IMG/VR virus record: IMGVR_UViG_2974556156_000001
Coordinates: 21,139 to 85,138 of that record
Direction: 5' to 3' (one strand)
Length of the DNA stretch: 64,000 nucleotides
Origin: a virus
Lineage: Duplodnaviria; Caudoviricetes
In this document: in pieces, positions 47,800 to 63,781 of the stretch
Numbering within the stretch: position 1 is the first letter of the stretch
How the letters are laid out: each line of letters starts with the position of its first letter
Program-made: the position numbers and the translations under genes
The notes under the pieces: model-generated
Database searches by the model: none
What the model saw: only the letters and a program-made list of their open reading frames with translations
What the model was told of the DNA's origin: nothing

Positions 47800-47814
47800 T
47801 TTACCTCAGGTAAA
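47800..47814. promoter_or_regulatory. TTTACC-N3-GGTAAA box 1 (contains the rIIA Shine-Dalgarno)
   Basis: TTTACCTCAGGTAAA; - strand reads ...CTGAGGTAAA-TCGTT-ATG. Confidence 0.8.
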
Positions 47815-47825
47815 ACAAAGGGTTA

Positions 47826-47849
47826 GGTGGGAGGTTTAACCCTCCCACC
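47826..47849 (-). terminator. Stem-loop / terminator upstream of rIIA
   Basis: GGTGGGAGG-TTTAAC-CCTCCCACC, followed on the - strand by ...CUUUGUUUU. Confidence 0.55.
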
Positions 47850-47859
47850 CTAGTAGGAA

Positions 47860-48774
47860 TTAGGCGCTCAAGACCTGGGCCAGAGCGTGACGATGGATGT
47901 TCGAGCCGGCCAGAGCCTGACGCACGACGAAGTCGTAAGCCGCCTGAGCCGACGTGAACGGGCCGCCCTTCAGATTGCCGATCTTGCCGGCCTTGGTGAT
48001 GGTCCAGCCCTCGGCGGCAGCGGTCTGCTGGTGATCCAGCGTTTCGGCCGTGATGTCGCTGTAGTAGTGGGCGTCGCGCTCGACATAGCCGGTCTTGTAC
48101 CAGTTGATGTCGCGCGGCATCTTGCCGAACTCGATCAACGCCGCCTCTTGGGCTTCACGTTCGGACTTGGCCTTGATCGTGATGTTGCGAGCCACGCACA
48201 TCTGGCCGGACTCGATGCAGTTGTAGGCGACGAGCGGGCGCACCGGACGGATCCAAGAGGGGTGGCAGTCGAGGCGAGTCAGCGTCGCGCCGTTTTCAGG
48301 TCTGGTCGCCGTGATGTGGTAGGTTTCTTCACCAGTATCGGTGAAGGACACCGAAACGACCTGGGCTTCCAAGCCGACCGGGAGGCAGTAGTAGCCCGCC
48401 TTGAAGTTGTTCGGGTCGACATACATCTCGAACGAAGTGGTCAGTTCGACCACCTGACCCGCCTGGAATTGAGCCGACAGGGCCAGGGTGTTGAGGATCA
48501 ACTGATCAACCTGGTCCTGGGTGATCGGGAACTGCTCACCCTGGAACCAGACCGAGAGTGAGCCGTCGGCGGCCGAAATCCAGATGCCGATCGCCTCGCG
48601 GCTGGTGGGAGCCCAGATCAGCTTGTCTGCGCCGAACGGCTTGGTTTTCGCGGCCGGAGACTTGAAGGCAAGCAAAAACTCGCGAACCTTGTCCTTCGAC
48701 AGGTTCATCGGGGGAGTCTTCGAGTCGATGTGAGTGAGTTCGAAGGTATTATCATCGATCTTGGTGATGAGCAT
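47860..48774 (-). CDS. Hypothetical multidomain protein
   Basis: 304 aa, AAGGA RBS. Confidence 0.7.
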   Translation of the reverse strand: MLITKIDDNTFELTHIDSKTPPMNLSKDKVREFLLAFKSPAAKTKPFGADKLIWAPTSREAIGIWISAADGSLSVWFQGEQFPITQDQVDQLILNTLALSAQFQAGQVVELTTSFEMYVDPNNFKAGYYCLPVGLEAQVVSVSFTDTGEETYHITATRPENGATLTRLDCHPSWIRPVRPLVAYNCIESGQMCVARNITIKAKSEREAQEAALIEFGKMPRDINWYKTGYVERDAHYYSDITAETLDHQQTAAAEGWTITKAGKIGNLKGGPFTSAQAAYDFVVRQALAGSNIHRHALAQVLSA

Positions 48775-48785
48775 TTCAGCTGTCC

Positions 48786-49001
48786 TTAGCTACGGCCACG
48801 GATGGCCTGGATGGATTTGATACGCGCACTAGAATGGGTCGACATCATCTTGAGTTCGTTGGTGATGCCGGGGGCGAGCACCCCTGTCTTCGCCAGCAGA
48901 TCCATCTGGAGATTGATGGCTTCCTGCTGGGCGAGGATTTTGGTCAGCTCAGCCTCGCCAGCCTTGCTGGCGTTAGCGAGCAATTTCTCGATCGCAGTCA
49001 T
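48786..49001 (-). CDS. Hypothetical protein
   Basis: 71 aa, GAGG RBS. Confidence 0.6.
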   Translation of the reverse strand: MTAIEKLLANASKAGEAELTKILAQQEAINLQMDLLAKTGVLAPGITNELKMMSTHSSARIKSIQAIRGRS

Positions 49002-49330
49002 AGGATTACTGGCCTCGTTGGAATAATCGTCTTGGCTCCATTGCAGACCATTAGGGTCGAGACCCAGTTGACCTGGCGAAGGAGGGCGGCGATCGGAACG
49101 TAGGGCTGACCTTGGATGCTGTTCAGGACGAAAGCTTTACCCAGGTAAACTTCCGACCGGTAGTCCATCACGAACATGCCTCGCGTGTGCAGGGCATGTC
49201 GGTCGAACGACATCAACACATCCCCCTCATGGTTCAGGGCTGTGAGGTTGTGTGGAGTACCGGGAGGGATCCCCACCCAGTCGATCAGCTCTATTTGGCG
49301 TGCAGCCGGATCGATCACGTAGGCTTGCAT
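48998..49330 (-). CDS. Hypothetical protein
   Basis: 110 aa, GGAG RBS. Confidence 0.6.
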   Translation of the reverse strand: MQAYVIDPAARQIELIDWVGIPPGTPHNLTALNHEGDVLMSFDRHALHTRGMFVMDYRSEVYLGKAFVLNSIQGQPYVPIAALLRQVNWVSTLMVCNGAKTIIPTRPVIL

Positions 49331-49650
49331 CTGATGATCTCCTTGAGCCTGGACCAGAGCGGATCATCCATGTGGATGTTGTTGGCCATGTAGTCCCAAG
49401 CTTCAGACTTAGTCATCGGCTCGATGGTTCGACTGTAAAGATCGAACCAGATCTCTCTCATGACTTCATCAACCTGCTCCTTGACCTTATCAAGGCGGCG
49501 ATTGATCACCATGATGTTGTCTTCGTCCAACTCGTTCCAGAGTAGATCGAAGAGAGGATCACCACACTTAGCAGCGGCCTTGTCGGTGGCGATGTGCTCG
49601 AACTCGCCGGCCGCGTAGGTCTGGCCGAGGATCGTCTGGTAGCGGTTCAT
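49315..49650 (-). CDS. Hypothetical protein
   Basis: 111 aa, ATGA coupling. Confidence 0.65.
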   Translation of the reverse strand: MNRYQTILGQTYAAGEFEHIATDKAAAKCGDPLFDLLWNELDEDNIMVINRRLDKVKEQVDEVMREIWFDLYSRTIEPMTKSEAWDYMANNIHMDDPLWSRLKEIIRCKPT

Positions 49651-50159
49651 GACGGCTGCCCCGGACAGAAGACGGCGTAGGCCGGCTTCTCGACGTACTC
49701 GGTCTTATGCACGGCCTGCTTGGTCGTGCCGACCTGGACACGGGTACAGACCGCGCCCTCGGCGTCTGGCTGGCCGATCCAATGATGGCGGCCAACATAG
49801 ATGCTGAAGTAGCAGAAGCGGTCGAACGTGAAGCTCTCGACCTTGCCGATGAACCAGTCGGTGGTGGCGTCCTGCATACCTTGGTTGCTGACGCCGCCCA
49901 GCTCCAACATAGCGGCCTCGACGGCGGCGAAGGTGTCGTTGGCGACGCCCAGCTCCTGATCGGGTCGGATCTCCAGGCGTAGGCTGGCGTAGCACATGCC
50001 CGACATGAAGTTGGCGCTGATGGCCCGGTCAGGCCAGTCGCGCGAGAGCGCCTCGGCGCGGTCGACGATGGCCGCGACCTTATCGATGGCAGCGATGGTC
50101 TTGTCGTACTCGTCGCGGGCGGCTTGGCGCGCGGCGGCGGGGGTCCAGATTTCGGACAT
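49647..50159 (-). CDS. Hypothetical protein
   Basis: Start MSEIW at 50159 after GGAG. Confidence 0.65.
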   Translation of the reverse strand: MSEIWTPAAARQAARDEYDKTIAAIDKVAAIVDRAEALSRDWPDRAISANFMSGMCYASLRLEIRPDQELGVANDTFAAVEAAMLELGGVSNQGMQDATTDWFIGKVESFTFDRFCYFSIYVGRHHWIGQPDAEGAVCTRVQVGTTKQAVHKTEYVEKPAYAVFCPGQPS

Positions 50160-50161
50160 GG

Positions 50162-50587
50162 TCAATACTCCAAGAGCGTGACGCTCTCCAGACAGGGGTG
50201 CCAAAATGGTGGGTGACGGGTGTTGACGTTCCAGCGGAACGTCGACTGCACGATCACCCATCGATCGATGAAGATCCGGTCACGGCTTAGATTGCGGGCA
50301 TCCAATCGAGCCAGCTCCTTGGCCAGGTGGTCGACGCGATCAGGTCGAACGATGACCTCGGGACGTAGATTGCTCAGGATCGACAGCTTGTCGGCCCAGC
50401 TACGGGTCGGGTCGCTAGGCGGGTGGATGTCCCGAAAGCAGGGCCGGACCTGATGTGGCACCTTGTCGAGCGGAACCAGGATCGAGTACTTGACCTGAGG
50501 TCGGTCGAGCGCAGAGATCGGGACGTAGATGTGAGGATGGTGATCCTCGGTCACCTTGAACTCGAAAACGACGGAAGTGTCTTTCAC
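50162..50587 (-). CDS. Hypothetical protein
   Basis: 141 aa, GTG start after GGAGGG. Confidence 0.6.
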   Translation of the reverse strand: MKDTSVVFEFKVTEDHHPHIYVPISALDRPQVKYSILVPLDKVPHQVRPCFRDIHPPSDPTRSWADKLSILSNLRPEVIVRPDRVDHLAKELARLDARNLSRDRIFIDRWVIVQSTFRWNVNTRHPPFWHPCLESVTLLEY

Positions 50588-50829
50588 GTCGCACCCTCCA
50601 CACCCTCGGCGATGAAGGACACGGCCTTGACCAAGTCTTCGACCGTGTAGACGTCGTCGGTCAGCTCGACGCCGAACTCCTTCTCGACGGCGAGAATGAC
50701 GTTGATCCGATCCATGCTATCGCCGGGGATCGGATCCTTGATGTTGAACCTGGTCGGCGGTTCCTTAACCTGCGTGCGGATCACCTTGGCGATACGCGGG
50801 ACGACGGTCATGTCGATCCACTGGCTCAT
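50584..50829 (-). CDS. Acyl carrier protein homologue
   Basis: 81 aa; GDSMDRINVILAVEKEFGVELTDD..TVEDLV aligns with the ACP signature ADSLD.VE.VMA.EEEF..EIPD...TV. Confidence 0.8.
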   Translation of the reverse strand: MSQWIDMTVVPRIAKVIRTQVKEPPTRFNIKDPIPGDSMDRINVILAVEKEFGVELTDDVYTVEDLVKAVSFIAEGVEGAT

Positions 50830-51164
50830 TCGAGACGCTCCTGGTGTTGGACGAAGCGCAGCTCCATAAGACACAGCTGCTCTCGCCACTCGGGTTTGAT
50901 GTCGGGCCGACGGAACAGCTCGCGACCGATGAACACGATCGCGTCCGCGAAGTAGGCCTTGGTGTAGAAGGGTGGAAAGTCGTAGAGCTTCACGTCACCA
51001 ACCCACCACTCGGTCGGCATGAAGTTGTTCCAGATCATGCGGAAGGTGTGGAAGAGATGCCTAGTCGACATCGACTTCGGGGTGTGGAACTTTCCCTCAC
51101 GATCTCGCCAGCGCCAGATCTGGGTGACCTCGCGCTGGCCGAAGTGCCTAACTACGGCGGGCAC
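50826..51164 (-). CDS. Hypothetical protein
   Basis: 112 aa, Trp/Phe-rich, coupled to the ACP gene. Confidence 0.6.
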   Translation of the reverse strand: MPAVVRHFGQREVTQIWRWRDREGKFHTPKSMSTRHLFHTFRMIWNNFMPTEWWVGDVKLYDFPPFYTKAYFADAIVFIGRELFRRPDIKPEWREQLCLMELRFVQHQERLE

Positions 51165-51321
51165 GGCGCACCTGGAACTTGGTGGTCTTGACCTCGCCGC
51201 GATTGATCAGGTCACGCTTGATCTCCTGCGGCTTGATGTCGGGATCGTAGAACACCGTGTCGAGGACCTCGCGGCAGCCTCGGTTCCAGTGGACTAGGTC
51301 CCACGCTTTCTGGACCTGCAT
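51148..51321 (-). CDS. 57-aa hypothetical protein (not in ORF track)
   Basis: GGAGG RBS; MQVQKAWDLVHWNRGCREVLDTVFYDPD... Confidence 0.65.
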   Translation of the reverse strand: MQVQKAWDLVHWNRGCREVLDTVFYDPDIKPQEIKRDLINRGEVKTTKFQVRRARRS

Positions 51322-51536
51322 AGCTTGGCCTCCTTGCGCCGCTCGTGGCGGTTCTTAGGTTCGGACTTTTTAACCGGGTAATTTTCGAACCCGCCGCCCC
51401 GAAAGGTGGTCGTGCTCGACGTCGTGGGCTCGTAGCGCACGCCGTCGATGTAAATGGCCGTATCCCTGAAAGGGAACGTGCCCGTCGTGCCGCTAATGGA
51501 CTGACGAGCCTCATAGTCGATGGTCTGCGTGGTCAC
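51294..51536 (-). CDS. Hypothetical protein
   Basis: 80 aa, GTG overlap, GAGG RBS. Confidence 0.5.
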   Translation of the reverse strand: MTTQTIDYEARQSISGTTGTFPFRDTAIYIDGVRYEPTTSSTTTFRGGGFENYPVKKSEPKNRHERRKEAKLCRSRKRGT

Positions 51537-51853
51537 AGTTCACCTCGGAAATGGCGGGCCAGAACCTCCTTCAGCTCGTCAAGGCTGGCCGCCTCGTTGA
51601 TCTCGAACACGATCGGAGGATCGGGTGCTGGCTTAGGCTCGGGGCGCGGCTCATCCAGAAAGATGTGCTCGGCGCACCAGGACTTGCCCGGCAGGGCCTG
51701 GGCTGTGCAGCGGCTTCGGCTGCGCAGGTTGAAGAAGCACCGGTGCGTCGGTGCATGCTCGACGCACCAGCCTGGAATGACCTCAGGGTTGCAGCACGGC
51801 ACACCTAGACCAGTGATGGTCGGCTTGTTGAGGTCGCGGTGCTGGCAGGGCAT
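51533..51853 (-). CDS. Cys/His-rich protein (tandem zinc-finger-like)
   Basis: C...CC.....GWCVEH and RC...RC.....GKSWCAEH repeats. Confidence 0.6.
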   Translation of the reverse strand: MPCQHRDLNKPTITGLGVPCCNPEVIPGWCVEHAPTHRCFFNLRSRSRCTAQALPGKSWCAEHIFLDEPRPEPKPAPDPPIVFEINEAASLDELKEVLARHFRGEL

Positions 51854-52392
51854 CAGACGCCGCTCAGACCGAACCCGTTGGCCAGGGTGATCGACTCACC
51901 GTGGACGGGCCAGACGCCAGGATAGAAGAAGTCCCAGCCGTTGATGGGGATCGAGTAGGTCGGGACGCCGTCCTTCAGGGCACCGATGTTCAGGCGGGTC
52001 GGCGAGGCCGTGCGCAGCACATCGAAGCGTACCTCGCCCGCGTAGCGCTGATCGTCCCACAGGGCGACGTCCAGCTCGACTTGGGCGATGGGACCATGGC
52101 CGGTATCGTCGGTGAGCGTGACGAACAGCCGCTTGGCGCTGGTCTTGCGCTCCTGGAAGACGCCGTCCTTGTAATAGTCCTTGCAGGTCAGGCCGGTGGG
52201 CGTGGCCGACAGGCGGAACTCGACCAGGGTGTAGCCGGGCTTGTTGTAGAGCGAGCCCTTCACATCAGCTTCGTTCTCGTAGAGCGTGATGTTGGTGGCG
52301 TCGAGCGGGTCGGCGACCCAGCGGCTGGCGGCGTCGGTGTTCCATTCAAGGAACAGGCCGTCGCGGTCGCGGCGAAGAACACGTTTGAGCAT
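51853..52392 (-). CDS. Hypothetical protein
   Basis: 179 aa, GGAG RBS. Confidence 0.65.
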   Translation of the reverse strand: MLKRVLRRDRDGLFLEWNTDAASRWVADPLDATNITLYENEADVKGSLYNKPGYTLVEFRLSATPTGLTCKDYYKDGVFQERKTSAKRLFVTLTDDTGHGPIAQVELDVALWDDQRYAGEVRFDVLRTASPTRLNIGALKDGVPTYSIPINGWDFFYPGVWPVHGESITLANGFGLSGV

Positions 52393-52418
52393 AGGGCGCT
52401 CCAGGCGAGAGGAAGGGT

Positions 52419-52442
52419 GTGGGCCGGCTTGCGCCGGCCCAC
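52419..52442 (-). terminator. 10-bp stem with GCAA loop
   Basis: GTGGGCCGGC-TTGC-GCCGGCCCAC, pyrimidine-rich tail on the - strand. Confidence 0.55.
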
Positions 52443-52448
52443 GGGTCG

Positions 52449-52871
52449 TCAGGCGTCGGCGTCGGGCTCGCTGACCTTGCCGTCCAGCTCGTCGAGCTGA
52501 GCTTGCAGGGTGGCGATATCCATCGAGTCGATCGCCTCGTTCTGCTTGCGGGCCAGGGCCTGCAGCAGGACGTTGCGCTTGTCCCGAGCGGCGGCGGCCT
52601 GGGCGGCGGCGGCCTGGCGGGCCAGCTTGTCTTCGACGATGAACTTGACGATGTCGAAGCGCAGCTGATTGTCCGACTGGCTGGCGGTCACGCGATCGGG
52701 GTTGATCAGCGAGAAGTTGCCCGGCACCGTCAGCTTGCCGTTCAGGTCGGCGGCGATGGCGTCGAGTTGATCGAGCGTCAGCTCGAAGAGATCCTCGGTG
52801 TTGAGCTTGCCCGAGGTGGTGGTGAAGCGGAGCTTCTTGCGCGCCGCCCGTTCGAAGATGTTCATGGCCAT
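52449..52871 (-). CDS. Conserved-looking phage protein, partner of the 688-aa protein
   Basis: NIFERA.R.KLRF.T..G.L..EDL..L pattern. Confidence 0.7.
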   Translation of the reverse strand: MAMNIFERAARKKLRFTTTSGKLNTEDLFELTLDQLDAIAADLNGKLTVPGNFSLINPDRVTASQSDNQLRFDIVKFIVEDKLARQAAAAQAAAARDKRNVLLQALARKQNEAIDSMDIATLQAQLDELDGKVSEPDADA

Positions 52872-52910
52872 GATGGCGTGTCCCTTTCTAGGGGTTGAGG
52901 TGGAGGGTGG

Positions 52911-54977
52911 TTAGAAGAGGACCTTGAGGGTCCGATCGATGTTGCCCTTGACCCGGACAACCAGGGCAGGCTGATCCTTGCCGGTGGGCGTGAAGCCCAG
53001 GCCGACCAGCTGTTCGGTGACGCCGGCCGGATCGACCGCCATCTTCGCGCCCAGCAGCTCGAACACCTTGCGGTGCGGGTTCAGCTCGGGCTTGAGTTGC
53101 TCGTTGTAGAAGCCGCGCGTCGGCTCATCCATCACCCAGCCGTCCAGCAGGAAGAACCAGTGCTTCTGGCCGACCTGATGCTGGCAGTCCCAGGTGTTGG
53201 GGCTGGCGACGATGGCGTTGACCTTGACGAAATCAGGCGTGGTGGTGCTCTGGCTCGACTTGATCAGCGGCACGACCGTGATCGCGCCGTGCTTGTCGAC
53301 GACGATGTCGGCGATATCAGTTTGACCCCTGTTGCGCGGGTTGTTGTCCATCGCGAAGTGGTGGACCGAGCCCTGGATGTCGATGTCCACGGTGAAGCCC
53401 GTATCGACCGGCGAGATGCGGCTGTACTGGTGAACGAAGACGCGATAGTTGCCGGGCTTCATCTGGGTCTTGTCGGCATAGACGATGTTCTCGACCGGCG
53501 TGTGAGGGCCGCGATCCAGGTTGCCGCCCGCGTTGGCGTCCACGTCCAGCTGGCCACCCGAGGGCGACTTGCTCGACCGGTTCGCGTAGCTGATGTGGTA
53601 GCTGCGGCTCGTATTCTCCACGACGTGCAGGTCCAGGTCGTCGCCGTTGCTCCAGGCCAGGCGGATGCCGACGTCGCCGTCGACATTGCCGCCGGCCGCC
53701 TTGACGCGCTGCTTGACCGCGTCGGCGAAGTTGCCGACGTAGGACCAGCTGAAGCCGTTGTCCCACGGGAACAGGCCCGGCACGCCCGTCATCAGGGCGA
53801 CCTTCTGGGCGGCGTGACGGCGCTCGACGCCGATCTCGATCGAGGTCGCAGTGGGAAGCACGTCCGAGAGAAACTGGTCGATCGTGACCTCGGCGATCTG
53901 GTCCAGCTTCGCGAGCGGGGCCTTCTTGGTCGGGGTCAGGTCGTCGAACGGGTTGTCCTTGATGCGAGCGCGGCTCTCGCGGTCGACGAACAGCACATGC
54001 TTGGCCGAGATGTCGTCGATGGTCGCGAAGCGCCGGCTGAGCGCCGAGGTCAGGCCCAGCTCTTCGACCTTGGCCTTGGCGTCCTCGATCATGCGGGGCG
54101 TGACGAGGGCAGTCGGGCGGCGGTAGTTCTCGCCGCAGACCATGCGCTCGAAGCGACCGACCGCACCGTCCAGGTCGCCAGGATCGGCGGTCAGCTCGAC
54201 CAGCAGGGTGCCAATGCTGGAGCCACGGATGGCGGCCAGGGCGTCGCCGACCTTGAAGCTGTATTCCCAGGTCAGGGTGTTGAAGTCCTGGGTCGTGGAC
54301 TTGGTCAGGATCTCGTTCTGGACGCGCTTGAACTCGCGCAGCAGAGAGGCGAACTGATCGCCGCGCGCCAGGCTGTTGCTGGCGATCAGCTCCAGCACGG
54401 TGGAAACCGCGTCGGGGAGGATCTCGCGCACGGCGCGCGACAGCGTGTACTGCTTGGTGCGCGGGCCGTTCAGCAGCGTTGGGATGTCGTGGCGGCGCTT
54501 GACGTACTTGGCCGGCACCGAGACGTGGAAGTGGTCATAGGTGATCGCATTGCCGGCCTCGTCGCGCTCGACGTTCTGGCGCGTGCCCAGGTTCGAGCTG
54601 TCGTGCAGGAAGACGTTGTTGATCGGCTGGGCGCGGACGGCGGCGGCCAGGGCGTCGGCGACGTGCTGGAAATCAGGGACCTTCACGTCCCAGATGGTCT
54701 GGATCTTGCCGTCAATGATGGCGACGATGTTCGACTTGCGGATGAAGTTGCGGCAGCAGCTGCAGTCGTAGACGCCGCGCACGCGGTGGATCGGGTTCTC
54801 GCCTTCCTTGAAGGAGCCGAGGTAGGTGGTCCAGAGGTCGTCGCCGAAGCGCGCGGCCAGCTCGGGGTAGTTGAGCGTGGCGTCGGGATCGACGATGGTG
54901 CCCGTCGTGAACAACTGGTGGAGGGTCATGGCGGCGAACTGCTCGGCCACAGCCTGGCGGAAGGTATTGAAATTCAT
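52911..54977 (-). CDS. Large protein with Cys cluster and YfaP/DUF2135-like domain
   Basis: YDCSCCRNFI; WSNGDDLDLHV...GGQLDVDANAG...VENI...PGNYRVFVHQY. Confidence 0.7.
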   Translation of the reverse strand: MNFNTFRQAVAEQFAAMTLHQLFTTGTIVDPDATLNYPELAARFGDDLWTTYLGSFKEGENPIHRVRGVYDCSCCRNFIRKSNIVAIIDGKIQTIWDVKVPDFQHVADALAAAVRAQPINNVFLHDSSNLGTRQNVERDEAGNAITYDHFHVSVPAKYVKRRHDIPTLLNGPRTKQYTLSRAVREILPDAVSTVLELIASNSLARGDQFASLLREFKRVQNEILTKSTTQDFNTLTWEYSFKVGDALAAIRGSSIGTLLVELTADPGDLDGAVGRFERMVCGENYRRPTALVTPRMIEDAKAKVEELGLTSALSRRFATIDDISAKHVLFVDRESRARIKDNPFDDLTPTKKAPLAKLDQIAEVTIDQFLSDVLPTATSIEIGVERRHAAQKVALMTGVPGLFPWDNGFSWSYVGNFADAVKQRVKAAGGNVDGDVGIRLAWSNGDDLDLHVVENTSRSYHISYANRSSKSPSGGQLDVDANAGGNLDRGPHTPVENIVYADKTQMKPGNYRVFVHQYSRISPVDTGFTVDIDIQGSVHHFAMDNNPRNRGQTDIADIVVDKHGAITVVPLIKSSQSTTTPDFVKVNAIVASPNTWDCQHQVGQKHWFFLLDGWVMDEPTRGFYNEQLKPELNPHRKVFELLGAKMAVDPAGVTEQLVGLGFTPTGKDQPALVVRVKGNIDRTLKVLF

Positions 54978-54983
54978 GAGCTT

Positions 54984-54998
54984 TTTACCTCAGGTAAA
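54984..54998. promoter_or_regulatory. TTTACC-N3-GGTAAA box 2 (contains the SD of the 688-aa gene)
   Basis: TTTACCTCAGGTAAA, 6 nt from ATG 54977. Confidence 0.8.
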
Positions 54999-55033: not shown

Positions 55034-56449
55034 TCAGTCGTCGTAGTTCTGAGTCTCTAACACCGTCCCATCGGACAGGCGCATAGGGGCGTTGCGATCG
55101 GTCAGCTCGATGGTGCCGGCCGTCAGGTCGACACGCACCCAGCGGTTTGGCGGGTACTTCTTGAGAGCGCCTTCGACGCGCACGATCTTGAGATCCTGCT
55201 CGCGGAAGACGGTCACAAGGTGAGCAACCGCGCCACCGACCTCGGTGATCAGTACAGCGCCGCGCTGGATCGCATCCTGGGCGGCGTAGACATAATCCGG
55301 CCCGGCGTTCTTGATGACGCCAACCTGGCAGCCATCTGGGAGCCGGCCTTTGGGCTCGATATGGGCGATCCGACCTTCCACCTTGCCCGAGCCCGACAGG
55401 ATCGGGATCTTGGCGTTGAAGTAGCGCTTCTGCACTTCCTCCATCGCTTCGTAGGCGGCGTTGTTGAGCGGCCCGTCGCCCGCGAAATGCCAGTCGGAGG
55501 GCTCGAAGCCGCCACCGATGATCCAGTCGCTATGATAGGGGTCGTCGCCCATCATCTTCAGGCCCTGTGGGCAGATTGGATCCCACTTCGGGGCCAGATG
55601 CCACCAGCCGGTGCGGTTCAGCGCCCAGTTCTCGAAGGGTCGCGTGGGGATTGAGTGGATGACCCCGTCGACCTCCATGTCGAAGCGCTCATCGCCGGCC
55701 GCGTTGTCGATTTCGCGACGCAGCTCATCGGTGGAGCGCTTCGGCGCTCGCTCGGCGGCAAGAAACTTTTGGAGCGTGCTGGCTGGGCGCGGCGGCGCGG
55801 CTTTGGTCGCCATGATCACGACGTTGTCGAGGTCAGGCTTGATGTAGCCGCGCTCGTAGAGCCTCGGCACATGTTCGGCGGCGAGGTAGTTGTCGATCGC
55901 TTCCTGCGGCCTCTCCAGGCCAGCGTGCTCGAAGAAGGCATGCGGAAAGCCTCGGATCTCTTTGAACAGGATGTTGCCCCGTGACATGAGGCAATTACGT
56001 GTGTGGGACTTGAAGTCCCCGTTCAGCACGTAATGCGTGTCCTTGACCGGGTCGTCGGCATAGAACAGCGAGTTGTGAATGTACTTTGGATTGCGACGCG
56101 GGCCGTTGGCTTCAGGGACCATGTCGTCAGGTCCCCAGCTGGTGACGATGGCGTAAGGTCGCATGAAGCGACCATCGCTGGCGACGTAGACGCCCGCGAA
56201 GTGCCAGGCCAGTTGGCGCTTGTACTCCTGATCATCGTCATCGGCGAGTTCCAGGGAATTTACCCCGGTAAGTTTCGCATCGCCCTTCAAGATCCTCAGG
56301 GCGATGTCGTAGGTCATGCCGTGGAGGTCCTCCATCAGCAGCTTCAGCGACCAATCCCACCGACCCTCACGCACACGGGTGCGGACCAGATCGGTGATGT
56401 ACTCACCATCAATGCTGAAGTGCAGGGTTTTGCTGGTTGACGTGGACAT
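55034..56449 (-). CDS. Protein with C-terminal PEP-utilising phosphohistidine (swivel) domain
   Basis: GKVEGRIAH...NAGPDY...AVLITEVGGAVAHLVTVFRE...VRVDLTAGTI matches the PEP-utiliser mobile-domain pattern IVT..GG..SHA.IVARE. Confidence 0.75.
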   Translation of the reverse strand: MSTSTSKTLHFSIDGEYITDLVRTRVREGRWDWSLKLLMEDLHGMTYDIALRILKGDAKLTGVNSLELADDDDQEYKRQLAWHFAGVYVASDGRFMRPYAIVTSWGPDDMVPEANGPRRNPKYIHNSLFYADDPVKDTHYVLNGDFKSHTRNCLMSRGNILFKEIRGFPHAFFEHAGLERPQEAIDNYLAAEHVPRLYERGYIKPDLDNVVIMATKAAPPRPASTLQKFLAAERAPKRSTDELRREIDNAAGDERFDMEVDGVIHSIPTRPFENWALNRTGWWHLAPKWDPICPQGLKMMGDDPYHSDWIIGGGFEPSDWHFAGDGPLNNAAYEAMEEVQKRYFNAKIPILSGSGKVEGRIAHIEPKGRLPDGCQVGVIKNAGPDYVYAAQDAIQRGAVLITEVGGAVAHLVTVFREQDLKIVRVEGALKKYPPNRWVRVDLTAGTIELTDRNAPMRLSDGTVLETQNYDD

Positions 56450-57826: not shown

Positions 57827-57848
57827 CGGGTAGGGGTTGCGGCCCATA

Positions 57849-58289: not shown

Positions 58290-58939
58290 TGGAGCGTATC
58301 CGATCCTGAAATGGTGACCGCCTGAGCGTCTTTACCTGGGTAAAAACGCTCCATGTAGTCGGCCTCGCTGGTGAAAATCTGAGCGGCCGGTTGCAGCAGG
58401 ACGTCGCCGTCCCCGTCTCGCGTGACCATGACCAGCAGCGACGCAGTCTCGCGCGTCGGACTTTTGGTGTCGATCACCGACATGACGGCCAGCTCGGCGT
58501 CACAGATCATCTCGAACCGCTCGCGGGCGATGTCGGGCAGCGGGCCGGGTTCGGGCAGCGGCGGGTTGGCGACCTGCTTCATCTTCTCGATGAGGGTCTG
58601 GAGGTGGGCGAAGGTGAGAGGCGCAGAGCTGGCCATGTGCGCCAGACCTGTGCCGACGCCATCGCTAGGCCACACGACCATCTTGCCGGCGCGGAGCGCG
58701 TCGAAGACCTTGGTGAAGTCGGCTTCGAGAACCTTGACGTTCTTCTCGAACTCGTCGTCGGTCCAGTAGTGGCCGGGCATGTTGAGCGTGGCGATACCGA
58801 TGGCGTTGGGCTCACCGCGCGCCTCGGCCGCTTGGCCACCGAAGCCCTTGCGGATCTCATTGTCGCCGAAAACGTAGAGTACGTCCGGGTTGTTGATCAG
58901 GTCTTTGCGGTAGTAGCGATGCTGGTAGATCAGCGGCAT
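58286..58939 (-). CDS. Macrodomain-like protein with C-terminal extension
   Basis: LYVFGDN...GFGGQA..ARGEPNAIGIAT...VVWPSDGVGTGLA. Confidence 0.5.
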   Translation of the reverse strand: MPLIYQHRYYRKDLINNPDVLYVFGDNEIRKGFGGQAAEARGEPNAIGIATLNMPGHYWTDDEFEKNVKVLEADFTKVFDALRAGKMVVWPSDGVGTGLAHMASSAPLTFAHLQTLIEKMKQVANPPLPEPGPLPDIARERFEMICDAELAVMSVIDTKSPTRETASLLVMVTRDGDGDVLLQPAAQIFTSEADYMERFYPGKDAQAVTISGSDTLQ

Positions 58940-58942
58940 GGG

Positions 58943-59206
58943 TCAGTCCTCTTCCTCTTCCTCGGCGGCAAGGCGCTCGAACTCAGCGTTGATGACGCGC
59001 TCCGACATCTTGGTCAGGAAGCGCACGAACTTCGTATGCTCTTGCTCAGGCATCAGCCTGCAGGCTTTGATGGTGGCCCAAGCCTGAGAGATACAGGGAT
59101 TGTTGGCGAGAGTATTGGGGTAGTAGTCTTCAAGAGCGATTTCCAAGCTCTTGTCCTCCCGCCAATACTCGAACATGTGGAAGGGCTCGTCCTCACCCGT
59201 AGACAT
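58943..59206 (-). CDS. Hypothetical protein with acidic tail
   Basis: Start MSTGED at 59206. Confidence 0.5.
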   Translation of the reverse strand: MSTGEDEPFHMFEYWREDKSLEIALEDYYPNTLANNPCISQAWATIKACRLMPEQEHTKFVRFLTKMSERVINAEFERLAAEEEEED

Positions 59207-59420
59207 GAATGACCCCGTCGTACCATTCCAAAGCACGGGCCTCAGGCGGCGGGGTGGTGGGCACCTCGAAGACACGGGCCGCGTCGCTGAGTGTGTCCTG
59301 GTCGAAGACCGGAAGGTAGAGCTGGATCGCTTGTTCGAGCGTCTCAGCCCACACGAAGGCGTCGAGGTTATTGCCATCGACGTCTTCGTTGGTGACCAAG
59401 TACAGCTTCAGCTTCAGCAT
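59193..59420 (-). CDS. Hypothetical acidic protein
   Basis: GGAAGG RBS, MLKLKLYLV. Confidence 0.6.
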   Translation of the reverse strand: MLKLKLYLVTNEDVDGNNLDAFVWAETLEQAIQLYLPVFDQDTLSDAARVFEVPTTPPPEARALEWYDGVIHVYG

Positions 59421-59761
59421 TGGTGGTCCTTCCTGGCCAGGTGCTGGCCGATGTGACCCGCGCAGACGTAGGCGTCGCACTGGGGGCAGATGGCGAAGGC
59501 TCGACGCGCCATGCGGCTTTGGCTTTGGTGCATCGTCCCACACCTGGCGAAGGTCCAGCCCTTGGGCGCGACTTTGACCCGGATCACACCTTGGGACCAA
59601 GGGAGGATCCCTTGCAGGATCTTGTCGTCGGGCCAGTGTTGGCTGGGCTTGACGCCCAGCGCTTGCTTGACCTGCTCGTTGGCGGCCGGCCCGCCCGACA
59701 TGGTCAGCCTGAGTAGCGGGTTGCGGGGCCGGATTACTGGCTTGGGCTTAGGCTCAGGCAC
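59414..59761 (-). CDS. Hypothetical protein with C-terminal zinc-finger-like motif
   Basis: CPQCDAYVCAGHIGQH. Confidence 0.6.
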   Translation of the reverse strand: MPEPKPKPVIRPRNPLLRLTMSGGPAANEQVKQALGVKPSQHWPDDKILQGILPWSQGVIRVKVAPKGWTFARCGTMHQSQSRMARRAFAICPQCDAYVCAGHIGQHLARKDHQC

Positions 59762-60318
59762 TTCGTGGCCTCCTTCACCATTTTGAGCAGGTCATTGAAG
59801 TCTTCACCGTCCGGTGGGCGCGACTTGCTGTCGTCACCACGGATGGTGATGTTTTCGTCGTAGTAGAGCTGAGCGTGGAGCGCGAGACGCGCCAGCGCGG
59901 CGGTGGCGTCATCGACAGGCTCGAAGGGGTAGCAGGGATCGTCCTGGTCGAACGTGTTGTTGACGAACTGGCCCGGCCCGTAAGCGATGGTGACGGTCAC
60001 CATCAGCCCTTGCGTGGATGGTGAGCTGGCCATGTCGATGCTGCCGATCATAGCCAGATCGCCGGCTTTGTAGTGTCGGGTGGGTGGATCTTTCCCATCC
60101 ACGTCACCGAACCCACCGATGGTCATGCGAACCACGTCGCCCGGCTTCAGGTCGTAGGGGTTCAGCGTGTTGGCGTAGGTGAGCTTGGGCTCGTGCAGAG
60201 CGTCGGCGTCTTCGGCCATGCTGCGCAGCATGGATCGTGCGTCGATCCGCTGCTGGTCAGAGCCCGTGGTCAGATCCAGCAGGAGGGTGTCGAGCGACTG
60301 GCGATAGTTAGCGGGCAC
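59734..60318 (-). CDS. Hypothetical protein
   Basis: GTG 60318 after AAGGA; SH3-like central segment (LKPGDVVRM). Confidence 0.6.
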   Translation of the reverse strand: MPANYRQSLDTLLLDLTTGSDQQRIDARSMLRSMAEDADALHEPKLTYANTLNPYDLKPGDVVRMTIGGFGDVDGKDPPTRHYKAGDLAMIGSIDMASSPSTQGLMVTVTIAYGPGQFVNNTFDQDDPCYPFEPVDDATAALARLALHAQLYYDENITIRGDDSKSRPPDGEDFNDLLKMVKEATKCLSLSPSQ

Positions 60319-60499
60319 GACGGGATTTCCTTTTGCTGGCGCGCAGGCGCTCTTCCAGATCACGGATCTTGCTGCGGTGGTGCATGACATGCACAGCCAT
60401 ACCGCTGCGGGGATTGGCGAACTCGGCCGTGATGCACGTCTGGTGGTGCAGGATCCGGCGAGCGAGCCAGCTTTGGTAGAGGATGCGGATGATCGTCAT
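60308..60499 (-). CDS. Hypothetical basic protein
   Basis: GAGGTG RBS, MTIIRILY. Confidence 0.55.
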   Translation of the reverse strand: MTIIRILYQSWLARRILHHQTCITAEFANPRSGMAVHVMHHRSKIRDLEERLRASKRKSRRAR

Positions 60500-60501
60500 G
60501 G

Positions 60502-60765
60502 TTAGATCCACCTCACGAAATCGGCTTGGGGGAAGGCAGCCAGGATTGAATAGACGAGCTTGAGGCGCTCGTTGGGGCGCATGTTGGCCCCACGACTGCC
60601 GGCAGCGCCGACAGGCGCGTCGCGACCGGTCTGGTTGACCATGCCAGCCCACCGCAGGTAGGTCGCGTGGGTTTGGCCGCTCACAGCGGCGATGGTCTTG
60701 AGGTCTTCGGGATGCACGTAGTCACCCGGCTTGGTGTCCTTGACCAGTTGGTTCTTGTGGATCAT
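60502..60765 (-). CDS. Hypothetical protein
   Basis: GAGG RBS, MIHKNQ. Confidence 0.6.
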   Translation of the reverse strand: MIHKNQLVKDTKPGDYVHPEDLKTIAAVSGQTHATYLRWAGMVNQTGRDAPVGAAGSRGANMRPNERLKLVYSILAAFPQADFVRWI

Positions 60766-61331
60766 CGCTTGGTCCTCGTAACCTTGCAGGCCTGAGAGGG
60801 ATCGGCGGTGCTGACCGACTGTTCGGCCAGAGCGACCCAGCGATCGACCAGGGTTTTGGACTTGGAGCGCACGGTGATCGTGCGTGTGGGGTTCTCGCAG
60901 CGCATCTGAGCGACGTAGGTCGGGTGAGATTGCGCGTAGGCGATGGCCACATAGCTGGCGGCTAGGACCAAGCAGAGGATCAGGCTGACCGCTATGGTGT
61001 GAGCGGTCGACTTGTGGGCGATGTTGATGGACGTCGGCGTCGGCGTCGGGGTGGTGGGGATCGAGAGCTTCGACAGGTAGACCTGGTAGCTCATCGTATC
61101 GTGCCACTTCTGCGGCCACTGCACGTCGTTGACGAACTGGTGCTCGTAGTAGAGCGCACTGAACTCGTAGCCGTGCTCGTTGAGATGTACGGCGAGCGGC
61201 TCGTAAGTTCCCTGGCCGACTTGGGCGGGCAGGCTGATCTCGCCGGGCAGGAGCGTTGCGACGGCGCTGTCCGCTTTGGGTCGGTACCAAATGTTCCGGT
61301 AGCGGATGGTGAGGAGAGGTTTATCGGTCAT
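60762..61331 (-). CDS. Membrane protein (one TM)
   Basis: AGGAG RBS; TIAVSLILCLVLAASYVAIAYA. Confidence 0.65.
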   Translation of the reverse strand: MTDKPLLTIRYRNIWYRPKADSAVATLLPGEISLPAQVGQGTYEPLAVHLNEHGYEFSALYYEHQFVNDVQWPQKWHDTMSYQVYLSKLSIPTTPTPTPTSINIAHKSTAHTIAVSLILCLVLAASYVAIAYAQSHPTYVAQMRCENPTRTITVRSKSKTLVDRWVALAEQSVSTADPSQACKVTRTKR

Positions 61332-61347
61332 GCGCGGCGCTCCTTGG

Positions 61348-61362
61348 TTTACCTGAGGTAAA
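61348..61362. promoter_or_regulatory. TTTACC-N3-GGTAAA box 3 (inverted, upstream of a separate SD)
   Basis: TTTACCTGAGGTAAA on +; - strand reads TTTACCTCAGGTAAA-CCAAGGAG...ATG 61331. Confidence 0.8.
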
Positions 61363-61368
61363 ATATGT

Positions 61369-61393
61369 GGCTGGCGGCTGGCGGCTGGCGGCT
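61369..61393. repeat. 7-bp tandem repeat (GGCTGGC x about 3.5)
   Basis: ggctggc ggctggc ggctggc ggct. Confidence 0.85.
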
Positions 61394-61397
61394 AGGT

Positions 61398-61563
61398 GAC
61401 GCCCGGCTGGGGGGAAATTAGCCGGGCGTCGTTTGCACAAAGTCATGGGTTCAAGATGACGGAGCTAGGCGCTCCGTCGGTCGGGCGTTCACATAATGGC
61501 CTCCCTGGTTGTGCTGTCGGTCCCGTCAACATGATGCAGAGGCACGCACCCTTGGCGTGCCTC
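61398..61563. other. Non-coding leader with three perfect hairpins
   Basis: 61398-61430 (11 bp), 61458-61478 (8 bp), 61539-61563 (9 bp). Confidence 0.6.
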
Positions 61564-61597
61564 GGGATCGCGGGATTTGGACCTAAGCTGGGGTAGA

Positions 61598-62212
61598 CTA
61601 GAGACCCTGCTCCCGGATCACGTCCAGGGCTCTAGCGAAAGTCTGCTCGTCGTAAGCCTGGTGGAACCTGGCGACGAGCTGTGTCGGTGTGAGACTGCGA
61701 CCGCCTTCGATCATCAGGATCGTATCGATCGCGTCATTCAAATCGTCTGGCTCACCCTGAACGATGAACTCGAACGGGATTGGCGGCGGCGCTTGGCCTG
61801 TTGTGCTCCACACGATGTGCAGACGATGGTGATGAGGGTTGCAGCACCCACTCGTGGGGCAGATGCGACGGACGTGATGCGTCGGATCGATTTCGTGGTG
61901 CTCGCGATTGATCCCGAGATGCTCAAGCGGCACGCCGCCTAACACCCCCAAAAGGTCACCTTCTCCAGCTCGCTGTAGACGCGCGCGCTGGATACGTTCG
62001 CTGTAGAGTAGAGTGAAGACGATCCGGGCGGTAGCGTGGGGTCGGCCTGCTTCGAAAACATGGCTCGGGCCTGCCCAGCATTCGCTTGCTGGCTCGGGAT
62101 AGCTCGCGGCTCGCAGCTCGCTGCTCAGGTCACGACCTAGCAGTCTGGTAAGCCTTTGAATTATTGGTTGTTTTTTGCGCCCACGTTTTGGGCGCTCCTC
62201 GGCCTCACACAT
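61598..62212 (-). CDS. Degenerate HNH (His-Cys box-like) protein with helical C-terminal domain
   Basis: ECW...G...TARIVF...HVRRIC...GCCNPHH; ATG 62212 after GGGAG. Confidence 0.55.
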   Translation of the reverse strand: MCEAEERPKRGRKKQPIIQRLTRLLGRDLSSELRAASYPEPASECWAGPSHVFEAGRPHATARIVFTLLYSERIQRARLQRAGEGDLLGVLGGVPLEHLGINREHHEIDPTHHVRRICPTSGCCNPHHHRLHIVWSTTGQAPPPIPFEFIVQGEPDDLNDAIDTILMIEGGRSLTPTQLVARFHQAYDEQTFARALDVIREQGL

Positions 62213-62261
62213 TTTGGCTCCCCGGTGGTCTAATTCCATATACGAATTGACCGTCCAACTC

Positions 62262-62341
62262 AAAATACTATATTTTTTATAAATATATATACTTTGAAAT
62301 GGAAAAATAAATAGATATAGACACCCCCCCCGTATATGGAA
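62262..62341. other. Very AT-rich island with poly-C tract
   Basis: aaaatactatattttttataaatatatatactttgaaatggaaaaataaatagatatagacaccccccccgtatatgga in an otherwise GC-rich genome. Confidence 0.8.
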
Positions 62342-62347
62342 TTGCCC

Positions 62348-62740
62348 TTAGGCTCCGATTTCGGCAGACCCAGGACCCGACCGGCCGAGAAGCGCGGCTC
62401 GCACATGAGCCCGTAGAGCCTCGTTTGGCTCTCGGACGTCCCGACCTACCAGCGGCTCCTGTTTCGCCCGTCGTAGGCCCATCCAGGCGCGATTATAGCC
62501 AGCACGCTGGCAGAGGCGGTCCACCTCACGCCACGCGAGGGCCTCATTCGGCGCTCTGAACTTCCAAAACACGCGATGCACGGCCCGCGCGTCGAAGGCT
62601 TCGAACTCAATGCCGGCGCTGTGGTCGGGCAGAGCGGTCGCGTGACGCGGCATCGGACGCGGCTGGATCTTCGGGAGCGGCTTAAGCCACACCACGGCAT
62701 GCGGGTCGAAGACCATATCCTTGTAGCCGAGCTGGCTCAT
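62348..62740 (-). CDS. Hypothetical protein
   Basis: ATG 62740 after GGAG, overlapping the upstream stop. Confidence 0.55.
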   Translation of the reverse strand: MSQLGYKDMVFDPHAVVWLKPLPKIQPRPMPRHATALPDHSAGIEFEAFDARAVHRVFWKFRAPNEALAWREVDRLCQRAGYNRAWMGLRRAKQEPLVGRDVREPNEALRAHVRAALLGRSGPGSAEIGA

Positions 62741-62967
62741 GCGAAACTCCACCACACGAACAACGCGCCAAACACGATCACGATCGCTGCGCCGCTGTTG
62801 ATTTGCTCCAGAGCCCGCTTGAGGCCGCGCCGCTCACGAATTGAGCGGTACGAATGGGGGCGCAGTTTGGGCTGGATTGTGGCGTGTGCCAAGCCCAAAA
62901 TCGTCAGGCTCGCCAAAATCGCGAACCCCCCGCCATAACGAAGAGCCAAAATCAACAGGTCGTGCAT
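62737..62967 (-). CDS. Small two-TM membrane protein
   Basis: MHDLLILALRYGGGFAILASLTILGLAHA...AAIVIVFGALFVWWSFA. Confidence 0.65.
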   Translation of the reverse strand: MHDLLILALRYGGGFAILASLTILGLAHATIQPKLRPHSYRSIRERRGLKRALEQINSGAAIVIVFGALFVWWSFA

Positions 62968-62968
62968 T

Positions 62969-62983
62969 TTTACCTCCGGTAAA
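62969..62983. promoter_or_regulatory. TTTACC-N3-GGTAAA box 4 (contains GGAGG SD)
   Basis: TTTACCTCCGGTAAA; - strand TTTACCGGAGGTAAA-A-ATG. Confidence 0.8.
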
Positions 62984-63041
62984 TTCCGCCGCCCGAGGGG
63001 CGCGTAACGACGGCGCGCGTATGTAGGCACGCGCGAATACG

Positions 63042-63066
63042 CCCCGAGGGCGGGGTGCCCTCGGGG
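63042..63066. promoter_or_regulatory. 10-bp stem-loop
   Basis: CCCCGAGGGC-GGGGT-GCCCTCGGGG. Confidence 0.5.
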
Positions 63067-63092
63067 TTGAGTAGTCCTGTAGCGTGGCGGGA

Positions 63093-63764
63093 TTAGGCCG
63101 CTTTGGCGACCTCTTGGGCAGGAGCCAGAGCCTCGCCAATTTCCGCATAGATCGCCGCAAGGGCGAGCCGCGCGGCGTCCGCCTTGCCTTGGTCTTCCCA
63201 CTGGGAAACCGTGATCAGGTTGCGGATTTGGCGCGTAGCCTCGACCTGAAGGTCAAAGACCTCATTGCGCGGTTCGGCCGGTTCCGGTTCCGCCTTGGGT
63301 TGCGGTTCAAGAATGGTGGACGGCGAGGGATTGGCCGCCGTCGCCGCCTTGACGCTTGCGGCTTCAAGCCGCTTTTGCGCGGCGCGCGCCTCTTCCATCT
63401 TGCGGACACAAAACCCGCCGCAGAACGTGGCAATCGCCACGTCAAAAGCGTCCGGGTCCACCGCACCCGGTTCGCCGATAGCGGCGCGAAGTTTGGCAAT
63501 CATACCCGGTTCTTCGAAGGCCTTGCGGCAACGAGTCCGAATGACGTTCGCCGTACCCGCCGTGACGCCGGGCACTTTGTCCGCGAGAAGTTTGGAGGCG
63601 GACGCGGGCGATTGACCGTGATCAGCCGCGAGGATGGCGGCAAAGGCCACCGTCATCGCCTTTTGAACGCCGCCTTGGGCGCGTTCAAGGCCGGTCACTT
63701 GGGTGGCCACCGCGCTAATTGCGCGGCCGGTGTAGTTTTCGAAGATCTTAAGAGCGTTTTCCAT
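63093..63764 (-). CDS. Ala-rich hypothetical early protein
   Basis: 223 aa, GAGG SD inside box 5. Confidence 0.7.
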   Translation of the reverse strand: MENALKIFENYTGRAISAVATQVTGLERAQGGVQKAMTVAFAAILAADHGQSPASASKLLADKVPGVTAGTANVIRTRCRKAFEEPGMIAKLRAAIGEPGAVDPDAFDVAIATFCGGFCVRKMEEARAAQKRLEAASVKAATAANPSPSTILEPQPKAEPEPAEPRNEVFDLQVEATRQIRNLITVSQWEDQGKADAARLALAAIYAEIGEALAPAQEVAKAA

Positions 63765-63766
63765 TT

Positions 63767-63781
63767 TTTACCTCAGGTAAA
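63767..63781. promoter_or_regulatory. TTTACC-N3-GGTAAA box 5
   Basis: TTTACCTCAGGTAAA, 2 nt from ATG 63764. Confidence 0.8.

Follow-up and report, generated by a model that had tools for sequence, protein, structure and literature searches.

The 64,000 nt stretch analyzed here (hereafter, the window) spans positions 21139–85138 of the 85,138 bp phage record IMGVR_UViG_2974556156_000001 (61% GC), and its early region contains a short recurrent palindrome, TTTACC-N3-GGTAAA, that we call the box. Its occurrence is non-random and restricted to the early region, it is conserved at the starts of orthologous genes, and it is transcribed. Judging from comparisons with related phages, it is almost certainly the docking site of an early-gene regulator, and we tentatively favor the interpretation that it is the operator of an early-gene regulon acting on the mRNA.

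A first-pass annotation of the window had reported five copies of TTTACC-N3-GGTAAA, at 47800, 54984, 61348, 62969, and 63767, all of which are present. The number five is correct for boxes with a three-base center; the total rises with two perfect boxes with a two-base center (49136–49149 and 58331–58344) and one box with a single mismatch (56259–56272). The annotation had noticed none before 47.8 kb, and the whole genome indeed lacks any box outside the early unit. It had also judged the arms improbable by chance and suggested counting the motif against a Markov background: no match appeared in 100 dinucleotide shuffles of the window and, for perfect sites with a 2–4 base center in the unique genome, models of order 1 to order 3 expect 0.0005–0.0008 sites, whereas 7 were observed. 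TTTACC is by far the commonest 6 nt palindrome arm genome-wide, lone half-sites are not enriched (4 and 2 observed vs. 4.8 expected each), and no other spots of the early region are as AT-rich as the arms. As for the sequence said to be shared by four of the copies, three sites are TTTACCTGAGGTAAA on the minus (gene) strand and the site at 61348 reads the same on the plus strand only; the site at 62969 is TTTACCGGAGGTAAA on the gene strand.

All the genes called from around position 64000 of the window down to around 19100 are on the minus strand, and the first ~16 kb of this unit consist of small, tightly overlapping early genes, mostly of unknown function. Genes within a block overlap start to stop and, according to the gene map, five of the seven largest non-coding gaps of the early unit hold a box. 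The genome carries an exact direct terminal repeat of 1,748 bp (window 62253–64000; genome 1–1748 and 83391–85138) that contains the early genes for proteins of 223, 76, and 130 amino acids (aa) together with two boxes, which are consequently duplicated. The boxes of the window are the following, where RBS stands for ribosome-binding site and SD for Shine-Dalgarno sequence:

Box 1, 63767..63781, minus strand: center TGA; overlaps the RBS of the 223-aa first early gene (ATG 63764); in the terminal repeat, duplicate at genome 1515.
Box 2, 62969..62983, minus strand: center GGA; overlaps the RBS of the 76-aa membrane gene (ATG 62967); in the terminal repeat, duplicate at genome 717.
Box 3, 61348..61362, no strand assigned: center TCA on the gene strand; 2 nt 5′ of a separate AAGGAG SD of the 189-aa gene (ATG 61331).
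Box 4, 58324..58351 (box proper 58331–58344), minus strand: center CA (2 bases); tip of an extended hairpin.
Box 5, 56259..56272, minus strand: one mismatch, CTTACC-GG-GGTAAA; inside the 471-aa gene.
Box 6, 54984..54998, minus strand: center TGA; overlaps the RBS of the 688-aa DUF8224 gene (ATG 54977).
Box 7, 49136..49149, minus strand: center TG (2 bases); inside the 110-aa gene; lineage-specific.
Box 8, 47800..47814, minus strand: center TGA; overlaps the RBS of rIIA (ATG 47794).

Protein searches recovered ten related metagenomic contigs which, together with this phage, contain about 39 boxes in total; L121 and L126 derive from the same sample and were counted as one phage. Their amino acid identities to this phage are:

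L118/L119: 76–90%.
L123: 85% in the 223-aa protein.
L121/L122/L124: 57–60% in the 223-aa protein.
L125/L126: 45% in rIIA.
L127: 37% in rIIA.
L128–L131: 26–37%, as remote homologs of the 223-aa protein.

The box occurs only in the early regions of these contigs and mostly at matching gene starts, the shared box-bearing starts being those of the 223-aa family gene (with an ortholog of box 1 in 9/9 lineages that have this gene family), the 76-aa gene, the DUF8224 gene, and rIIA. The flanks diverge, with indels next to the boxes, and the arms remain intact. A further contig with a DUF8224 protein 51% identical, L120, has neither a box nor an analogous recurrent palindrome at gene starts and, therefore, the box system does not travel with DUF8224. 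No close relative was found among curated phage records, by megablast or by tblastn with the 223-aa protein, and searching IMG/VR with the 223-aa and rIIA proteins was likewise negative. An exact-motif scan of IMG/VR returned more than 117 single matches, which is at chance level; its sole double match (L014) was discarded as a box system because it is a repeated peptide motif in AT-rich DNA. A literature search with the motif strings retrieved no paper, and Rfam gave three sub-threshold, chance-level matches in 43000–64000, none of them on a box.

Two types of arms exist. The 16 boxes of this phage, L118 and L123 are all TTTACC/GGTAAA (L119 is of the same type), and all 21 perfect boxes of the other lineages are TTTAAC/GTTAAA; a pattern count found zero boxes with mixed arms and zero genomes containing both arm types. 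This distribution indicates that a putatively ancestral TTTAAC/GTTAAA pair changed symmetrically, at position 5 and its partner (A:U to C:G), in every copy of one lineage. A concerted, symmetric change of this kind points to a common sequence-specific factor acting in trans and reading the paired arms, be it as a duplex or as the half-sites of a dimer; independent cis-elements would not change their arms in concert. Conservation at orthologous starts and the lineage-wide symmetric arm swap likewise bear out two ideas of the first-pass annotation, namely that conservation concerns the dyad symmetry and not the SD, and that the box is a regulon-type element on the first gene of early blocks.

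The anatomy of the box was examined in 39 sites from this phage and the related contigs. Its general form is a perfect dyad, TTTA(C/A)C-N1-4-G(G/T)TAAA, with arms that are invariant within each genome and a variable center; the spacer is 3 nt long at 25 sites, 2 nt at nine, 4 nt at four and 1 nt at one. Spacer length differs even between orthologs: the DUF8224 box has 3 nt here vs. 4 nt in L125, and the box of the 223-aa gene has 3 nt here vs. 2 nt in L121. An ATG starts 0–7 nt past the right arm in 25/39 sites (64%), and further sites adjoin a separate SD, at a distance of 2 nt in box 3 and in L131 9970, and of 7 nt in L130. Taken together with the initial G of the right arm, the center resembles an SD in 22 of the 25 start-adjacent sites, compared with 4 of the other 14, and the orientation of the center is free at sites away from starts. 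In the window, the center indeed supplies the SD (GAGG or GGAGG) 5–10 nt before the ATG of rIIA (47794), the 688-aa gene (54977), the 76-aa membrane gene (62967), and the 223-aa gene (63764), as had been proposed, and the fifth site is flipped, with its own AAGGAG following 2 nt after the box at 61348 and the ATG at 61331. Because the center serves as SD at start-adjacent sites, the box is transcribed and the ribosome must bind inside it. The window boxes occupy the ATG-proximal end of non-coding gaps of 56 nt to more than 230 nt; since these gaps are much longer than the box, its position is not forced by crowding. An alignment anchored on the boxes showed no conserved upstream element and no promoter-like sequence at a fixed distance, and no sigma-70-type promoter was found on the gene strand within 44001–64000. 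The RNA hairpin has a predicted energy of −2.8 kcal/mol here and of −0.4 to −1.7 kcal/mol in the ancestral (TTTAAC) form; in their sequence context, most TTTAAC sites are predicted not to fold into it.

Individual boxes differ in their history. Box 2 has orthologs in L118, L123, L121, L124, L128, and L130; those of box 6 are at L118 9658 (center AAA) and L125 835 (center GGAC), and those of box 8 at L118 16458 and L127 5284, with an identical spacer, TCGT(C/T)ATG. The flipped center of box 3 is retained in L118/L119 although there is a 14 nt insertion downstream, and its ortholog in L121 (12396) is the tip of a 16 bp hairpin. Box 4 caps a hairpin of 12–13 bp, with one G.U pair on the sense strand, which lies within the 3′ end of the 217-aa gene and 42 nt ahead of the ATG at 58289. 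Box 7 is absent at the aligned position of L118, from which it differs by two amino acid changes and two synonymous changes to T at third codon positions; the latter oppose the bias of the genome toward G or C at these positions.

If the box is an operator on the mRNA, early transcripts would be polycistronic and, at the first cistron of each coupled block, the invariant 6 nt arms would flank the SD bases of the free center. A sequence-specific factor encoded by the phage would clamp the arms into a short duplex, a mini-hairpin stabilized by the protein, which would cover the SD and the start codon; initiation at the block-leading gene would thus be shut off or timed, and the genes translationally coupled behind the leader would follow. 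A variant would involve RegB-like cleavage at the clamped site, repression by occlusion being most likely. We infer that the factor acts on RNA and not on DNA, that it is encoded by the phage, and that its effect is repression. A mini-hairpin that is read through the sequence of its 6 bp stem, and whose free loop doubles as the SD to switch coupled early blocks, that of rII among them, on or off, might also constitute a new type of translational operator, a proposal that we make with some hesitation.

We prefer an RNA site because centers of 1–4 nt keep the geometry of the stem, yet would rotate the half-sites on DNA by up to ~100 degrees; because the box is tightly tied to the ribosome-binding region within much longer gaps and is found on the first cistron of each coupled block; because two boxes away from starts (58331 and L121 12396) cap long hairpins; and because there is neither a promoter-like sequence at a fixed upstream distance nor a sigma-70-type site on the gene strand. 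The SD-occluding hairpin with a translational regulator suggested in the first-pass annotation is thus retained in part: we lean toward an RNA site bound by a regulator, and not toward a self-sufficient hairpin, given predicted energies of −2.8 kcal/mol and of about 0 in the ancestral form.

Several points weigh against an operator on the mRNA. Known RNA operator hairpins are mostly read via loop or bulge bases, and the loops of the boxes are not conserved; the hairpin itself is, by its predicted energy, marginal and too weak to function unaided. Three or four boxes are embedded well within coding sequence, a long way from any start (49136, 56259, and L118 12957), and these lineage-specific boxes appear to be selected and would fit a DNA site or a cleavage site better. 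Furthermore, one-mismatch variants show no preference for G.U-compatible changes; no RNA-binding protein was recognized among 42 early or middle proteins, whereas proteins with a helix-turn-helix (HTH) were; and a perfect inverted repeat with a free center is the classic signature of a dimeric DNA-binding protein.

The operator for a dimeric phage repressor, which the first-pass annotation had also put forward, accordingly survives as a rival alongside the RNA site by virtue of the perfect dyad, the free center and the concerted arm change, and we consider it unlikely, albeit worthy of serious attention. On double-stranded DNA, a dimeric phage protein would contact one hexamer per subunit and block RNA polymerase at the entry of each block, in the manner of a stoperator; the center would be uncontacted and co-opted as SD, and the binder could be a 133-aa protein with two HTH domains, a 284-aa protein with a winged helix or the 223-aa protein, which has a flexible Pro/Ala linker. 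A single change in the specificity of a homodimer would yield the symmetric, concerted arm swap at invariant arms, and the model accommodates the lineage-specific boxes inside genes, which look selected, as well as an ancestral RNA hairpin essentially devoid of stability. Likewise, genes for HTH proteins are situated immediately downstream and are retained in phages of both arm types, and the box ahead of the 223-aa gene in 9/9 lineages is as would be seen for an autoregulated binder. Half-site centers are 8–10 bp apart, about one helical turn, and LacI tolerates a one-base-pair change in operator spacing; however, here the spacer ranges from 1 to 4 bp and differs at orthologous sites. Additionally, a DNA operator offers no reason why the box should be 0–7 nt from the ATG when the gaps are much longer, the AT-rich, promoter-like islands do not coincide with the boxes, no residue in the 223-aa family tracks the arm type, and the fold of this protein has no DNA-binding match. 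We therefore place an RNA operator, which is possible if still short of probable, ahead of an operator or roadblock on double-stranded DNA.

The remaining explanations are improbable to different degrees. The box could be a translation cassette acting only in cis, in which a left arm rich in U and a right arm rich in A/U prevent the SD from becoming structured in GC-rich mRNA, as an S1-type enhancer comparable to the A/U-rich enhancer in the RBS of T7 gene 10; this is improbable, even though the box overlaps the RBS and supplies the SD in 25/39 sites, its arms are the most AT-rich of the early region, its weak hairpin leaves the SD accessible, and A/U-rich enhancers 5′ of the SD boost translation (PMC8748333). 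Such a cassette leaves unexplained the exact dyad symmetry, the concerted symmetric swap without mixed sites, the 12 invariant nt across phages with 26–37% protein identity, and the flipped and in-coding sites. A role of the box as a promoter, or as part of one, is very improbable, whether the RNA polymerase is encoded by the phage (as for N4-type hairpin or TTTA promoters) or is that of the host redirected by the phage: the use of the SD inside the box implies that transcription must begin upstream of the center, the distance to the ATG is not fixed, and there is no conserved upstream element. A whole-genome search for a T7/N4-type RNA polymerase (PF00940) gave zero matches, as the same search did in control genomes, and the largest open reading frames (ORFs) are tail and replication genes, with no giant ORF in the genome. 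A promoter would nevertheless agree with the disposition of boxes after hairpins at block starts, resembling a terminator followed by a promoter, and with the lack of recognizable sigma-70 promoters in the early region; also, N4 middle promoters contain TTTA, like the left arm, and N4 early promoters are hairpins of 5–7 bp with 3 nt loops. Least probable of all is a recombination joint, whereby short identical boxes would be crossover points for shuffling early cassettes, as has been proposed for the promoter early stem-loop (PeSL) elements of T4-type phages, without any regulatory role of their own. The end of a gene replacement between this phage and L118 falls 4 nt away from box 6, the counterpart of box 4 in L118 is followed by two additional genes, L125 has a 206-aa gene inserted between the box and rIIA, and a lineage-specific WHD_BrxR gene in L125 carries its own box; however, 12–15 bp are very short for homologous exchange, and neither the coupling to the RBS nor the concerted arm change would be explained. 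The association of synteny breakpoints with boxes, proposed as a check in the first-pass annotation, was thus found only in part, since several lineage-specific genes adjoin boxes and most of the ~13 alignment breaks are elsewhere (e.g., the insertion of a 158-aa gene at L118 5657–6133). From these alignments, we read recombination at boxes as a side effect of block boundaries and not as their primary function.

Other candidates were considered and rejected. A CsrA/RsmA-type GGA-loop site does not apply, as only two or three centers have GGA in a loop context; resemblances to sites for CtrA, TyrR, or Fis, or to promoters of extracytoplasmic function (ECF) sigma factors do not fit in spacing or orientation; and an intrinsic terminator is not compatible with an A/U-rich stem of −2.8 kcal/mol or weaker without a consistent T-run.

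Three proteins are putative candidates for binding the box:

223-aa first early gene, 63093..63764, minus strand: candidate by context; the family occurs only in box-bearing phages, with a box before each member.
133-aa candidate DNA-level reader, 39972..40373, minus strand: HTH_23 plus XRE-type HTH_3; orthologs in L125 and L127.
284-aa candidate DNA-level reader, 42202..43056, minus strand: weak winged helix; the L125 ortholog is 29% identical.

The 223-aa family comprises ~23 members, all of them from this phage group. With an alignment of 23 sequences, the AlphaFold2 model is all-helical and has a mean predicted local distance difference test (pLDDT) score of 81, compared to 52 with an earlier, shallower alignment; its N-terminal helical domain is joined through a Pro/Ala-rich linker to a C-terminal helical hairpin. 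Foldseek comparison of the model with the PDB gave nothing at E ≤ 0.001, VIA-align gave background-level scores (Z ≤ 6.5; NusB, Z 5.7; TraM C-domain, Z 5.1), and sequence searches of Pfam and PDB with the protein were empty. Also, no column of the family alignment cleanly separates the arm types.

The first-pass annotation had listed candidate binders by position. That at 39972–40373, the 133-aa protein, does possess HTH domains (Pfam HTH_23 and XRE-type HTH_3); its recognition-helix region is RVRIRT here vs. RSTIRN and RVVVRN in two TTTAAC phages, and the presence of an Arg alongside the new G:C pair is suggestive in a comparison of three sequences only. The 284-aa protein, at 42202–43056, shows at its N-terminus a weak match to a MarR-like winged helix (23.6 bits, under the cut-off of Pfam). 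The product of 61598–62212 has no recognizable domain, and that of 14293–14475 reads, from its translation, like a small ribbon-helix-helix protein. Additionally, a TTTAAC-type relative contains at L125 4837–5172 a gene for a 111-aa WHD_BrxR-like winged-helix protein, with its own box at the RBS and no ortholog in the window.

The nearest analogs of the box among described elements are two kinds of mycobacteriophage repeats. Like the box, the start-associated sequences (SAS) of cluster K mycobacteriophages, and their extended form (ESAS), consist of short repeats that are found exclusively in the non-structural half of the genome (Pope et al., 2011; PMC3203893). They are located 3–7 bp 5′ of start codons and contain the SD core, as occurs with the box, and are also conserved before orthologous genes across subclusters, with unknown function (PMC3203893); moreover, the ESAS arms show subcluster-specific changes in their consensus, which recall the two arm types of the box (PMC3203893). 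However, the SAS is a 13 bp asymmetric sequence, GGGATAGGAGCCC, in a single orientation (PMC3203893), whereas the box is a 6+6 dyad of another sequence from a different group of GC-rich phages and, unlike the SAS, roughly one box in three is not immediately next to a start. The cluster O 17 bp palindromes, TGTTCGG-NNN-CCGAACA (Cresawn et al., 2015; PMC4351075), share with the box the invariant inverted arms and variable center, as well as a high copy number, a higher density in the non-structural arm, the presence of some copies in coding sequence, and an unknown function; both cluster O phages and this phage are apparently lytic. Conversely, these repeats are not closely linked to starts and have GC-rich arms of 7 bp with a fixed spacing of 3 bp, compared to 64% of start-adjacent sites and 1–4 bp in the box, and a lineage-wide arm switch, as seen in the box group, is not described for them (PMC4351075). 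By sequence comparison, then, the box has the position that defines the SAS and the symmetry that defines the cluster O repeats, and the sequence of neither.

Stoperators, bound by L5 gp71, are many operator copies in short intergenic regions where the bound repressor stops the elongating polymerase; they are asymmetric and orientation-dependent, and are bound by the prophage repressor of a temperate phage. The box is likewise present in multiple copies at gene boundaries, but is symmetric. Cluster A stoperators are mentioned in the descriptions of both the SAS and the cluster O repeats (PMC3203893; PMC4351075). In phage T4, RegA and RegB carry out a post-transcriptional shut-off of early mRNAs, including those of rII, through sites overlapping the SD or the AUG (PMC3014915), a placement similar to that of the box. 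No match to the RegA family (Translat_reg) was found at E < 0.01 among the 42 early or middle proteins, a search that could miss remote homologs. RegA sites are unstructured A/U-rich RNA and RegB cuts GGAG, with some intragenic sites; unlike the box, neither type of site is a dyad. PeSL cassettes of T4-type phages reportedly have a sigma-70 early promoter and a stable stem-loop at the head of early cassettes. Both PeSL and boxes head early cassettes and coincide with junctions in gene content; unlike PeSL, the box lacks a promoter, has a weak hairpin, and shows conservation in the sequence of its arms instead of their structure.

To our knowledge, repeated start-associated motifs of phages, such as the SAS and the cluster O repeats, have been catalogued for more than a decade and none has been given a mechanism. 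The box is tractable in this respect: it is short, conserved throughout the clade and associated with few and identifiable genes (rIIA, DUF8224, and the first genes of the terminal repeat), and TTTAAC/GTTAAA vs. TTTACC/GGTAAA constitute a natural matched pair of specificities. Should the RNA site be correct, the box would represent a RegA-like early shut-off based on a different principle of recognition; should the DNA site be correct, it would be a stoperator-like roadblock in a lytic siphophage of high GC content. In either case, it delineates the early regulon of an unstudied group of phages, along with their block structure, and is a compact, portable regulatory part for GC-rich hosts.

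The gene content of the genome is that of a large siphovirus, with a tape measure protein of ~2,000 aa, a J-like central fiber, a ribonucleotide reductase, a DNA polymerase, a helicase, an SbcC-like protein, and MazG. Among the proteins scanned, which did not include every ORF, neither an integrase nor an immunity repressor was seen. The identities of rIIA (45497–47794) and rIIB (44395–45522) are confirmed by PHROGs. The 688-aa protein (window 52911–54977) belongs to DUF8224 (PF26675) and has more than 3,000 homologs, including proteins of Caulobacter phiCbK-like, Ralstonia RSL1, and Ackermannviridae-like phages (40–45% identity). A weak Pfam match to DNA_pol_A (E 0.001) among the early proteins could not be assigned to a protein among ten candidates that were searched again.

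GC-rich hairpins are frequent 3–11 nt upstream of boxes, as in the leader of the rII block:

GC-rich hairpin, 47826..47850, minus strand: 11 nt upstream of box 8; leader of the rII block.

A hairpin before the rII block is kept in three lineages, with the same sequence in L118 and a different one in L125. Near box 3, the tandem heptamer GGCTGGC is present three times on the plus strand (window 61369–61389), between a GC-rich hairpin (61400–61428) and the box, and is not conserved in L118/L119; a small plus-strand ORF of 18 aa after the flipped box was rejected as a gene because it is not conserved in these contigs either. The 266 nt gap before the 189-aa gene contains at window 61489–61529 a start-stop mini-ORF, GGAGG-N7-ATGTGA, with TTGACGGG ~20 nt upstream, both kept in L119; together, they may form a promoter of alphaproteobacterial type plus a regulatory leader.

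The leader of the first early gene contains a perfect 14 bp palindrome, TTGTCGCGCGACAA (window 63838–63851), which is identical in L119 and L123 and partly retained (CGCGCGA...TCGCGCACCAAAGCC) in L121/L124, and is a candidate for a second operator 5′ of box 1. In addition, ~100 nt of non-coding sequence (window 63880–63990) are strongly conserved in lineages of both arm types (ACTGATTT...AAAAAGGGGT..AC.CCTT), and probably correspond to an immediate-early promoter or leader. The inner edge of the terminal repeat is a very AT-rich island of ~70 bp (62256–62324) flanked by an inverted pair of AATTCCATATAC (window 62232–62243 and 62332–62343), of which a third copy exists at genome 5353, in an AT-rich region 5′ of the primase block; these copies may be an operator or a terminase-related site. 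Finally, iteron-like repeats (GAGACCCGCGAGC...) occur in the relative, at L119 760–900, between the primase block and the terminal repeat, and match an iteron array of this genome (genome ~1750–2000).

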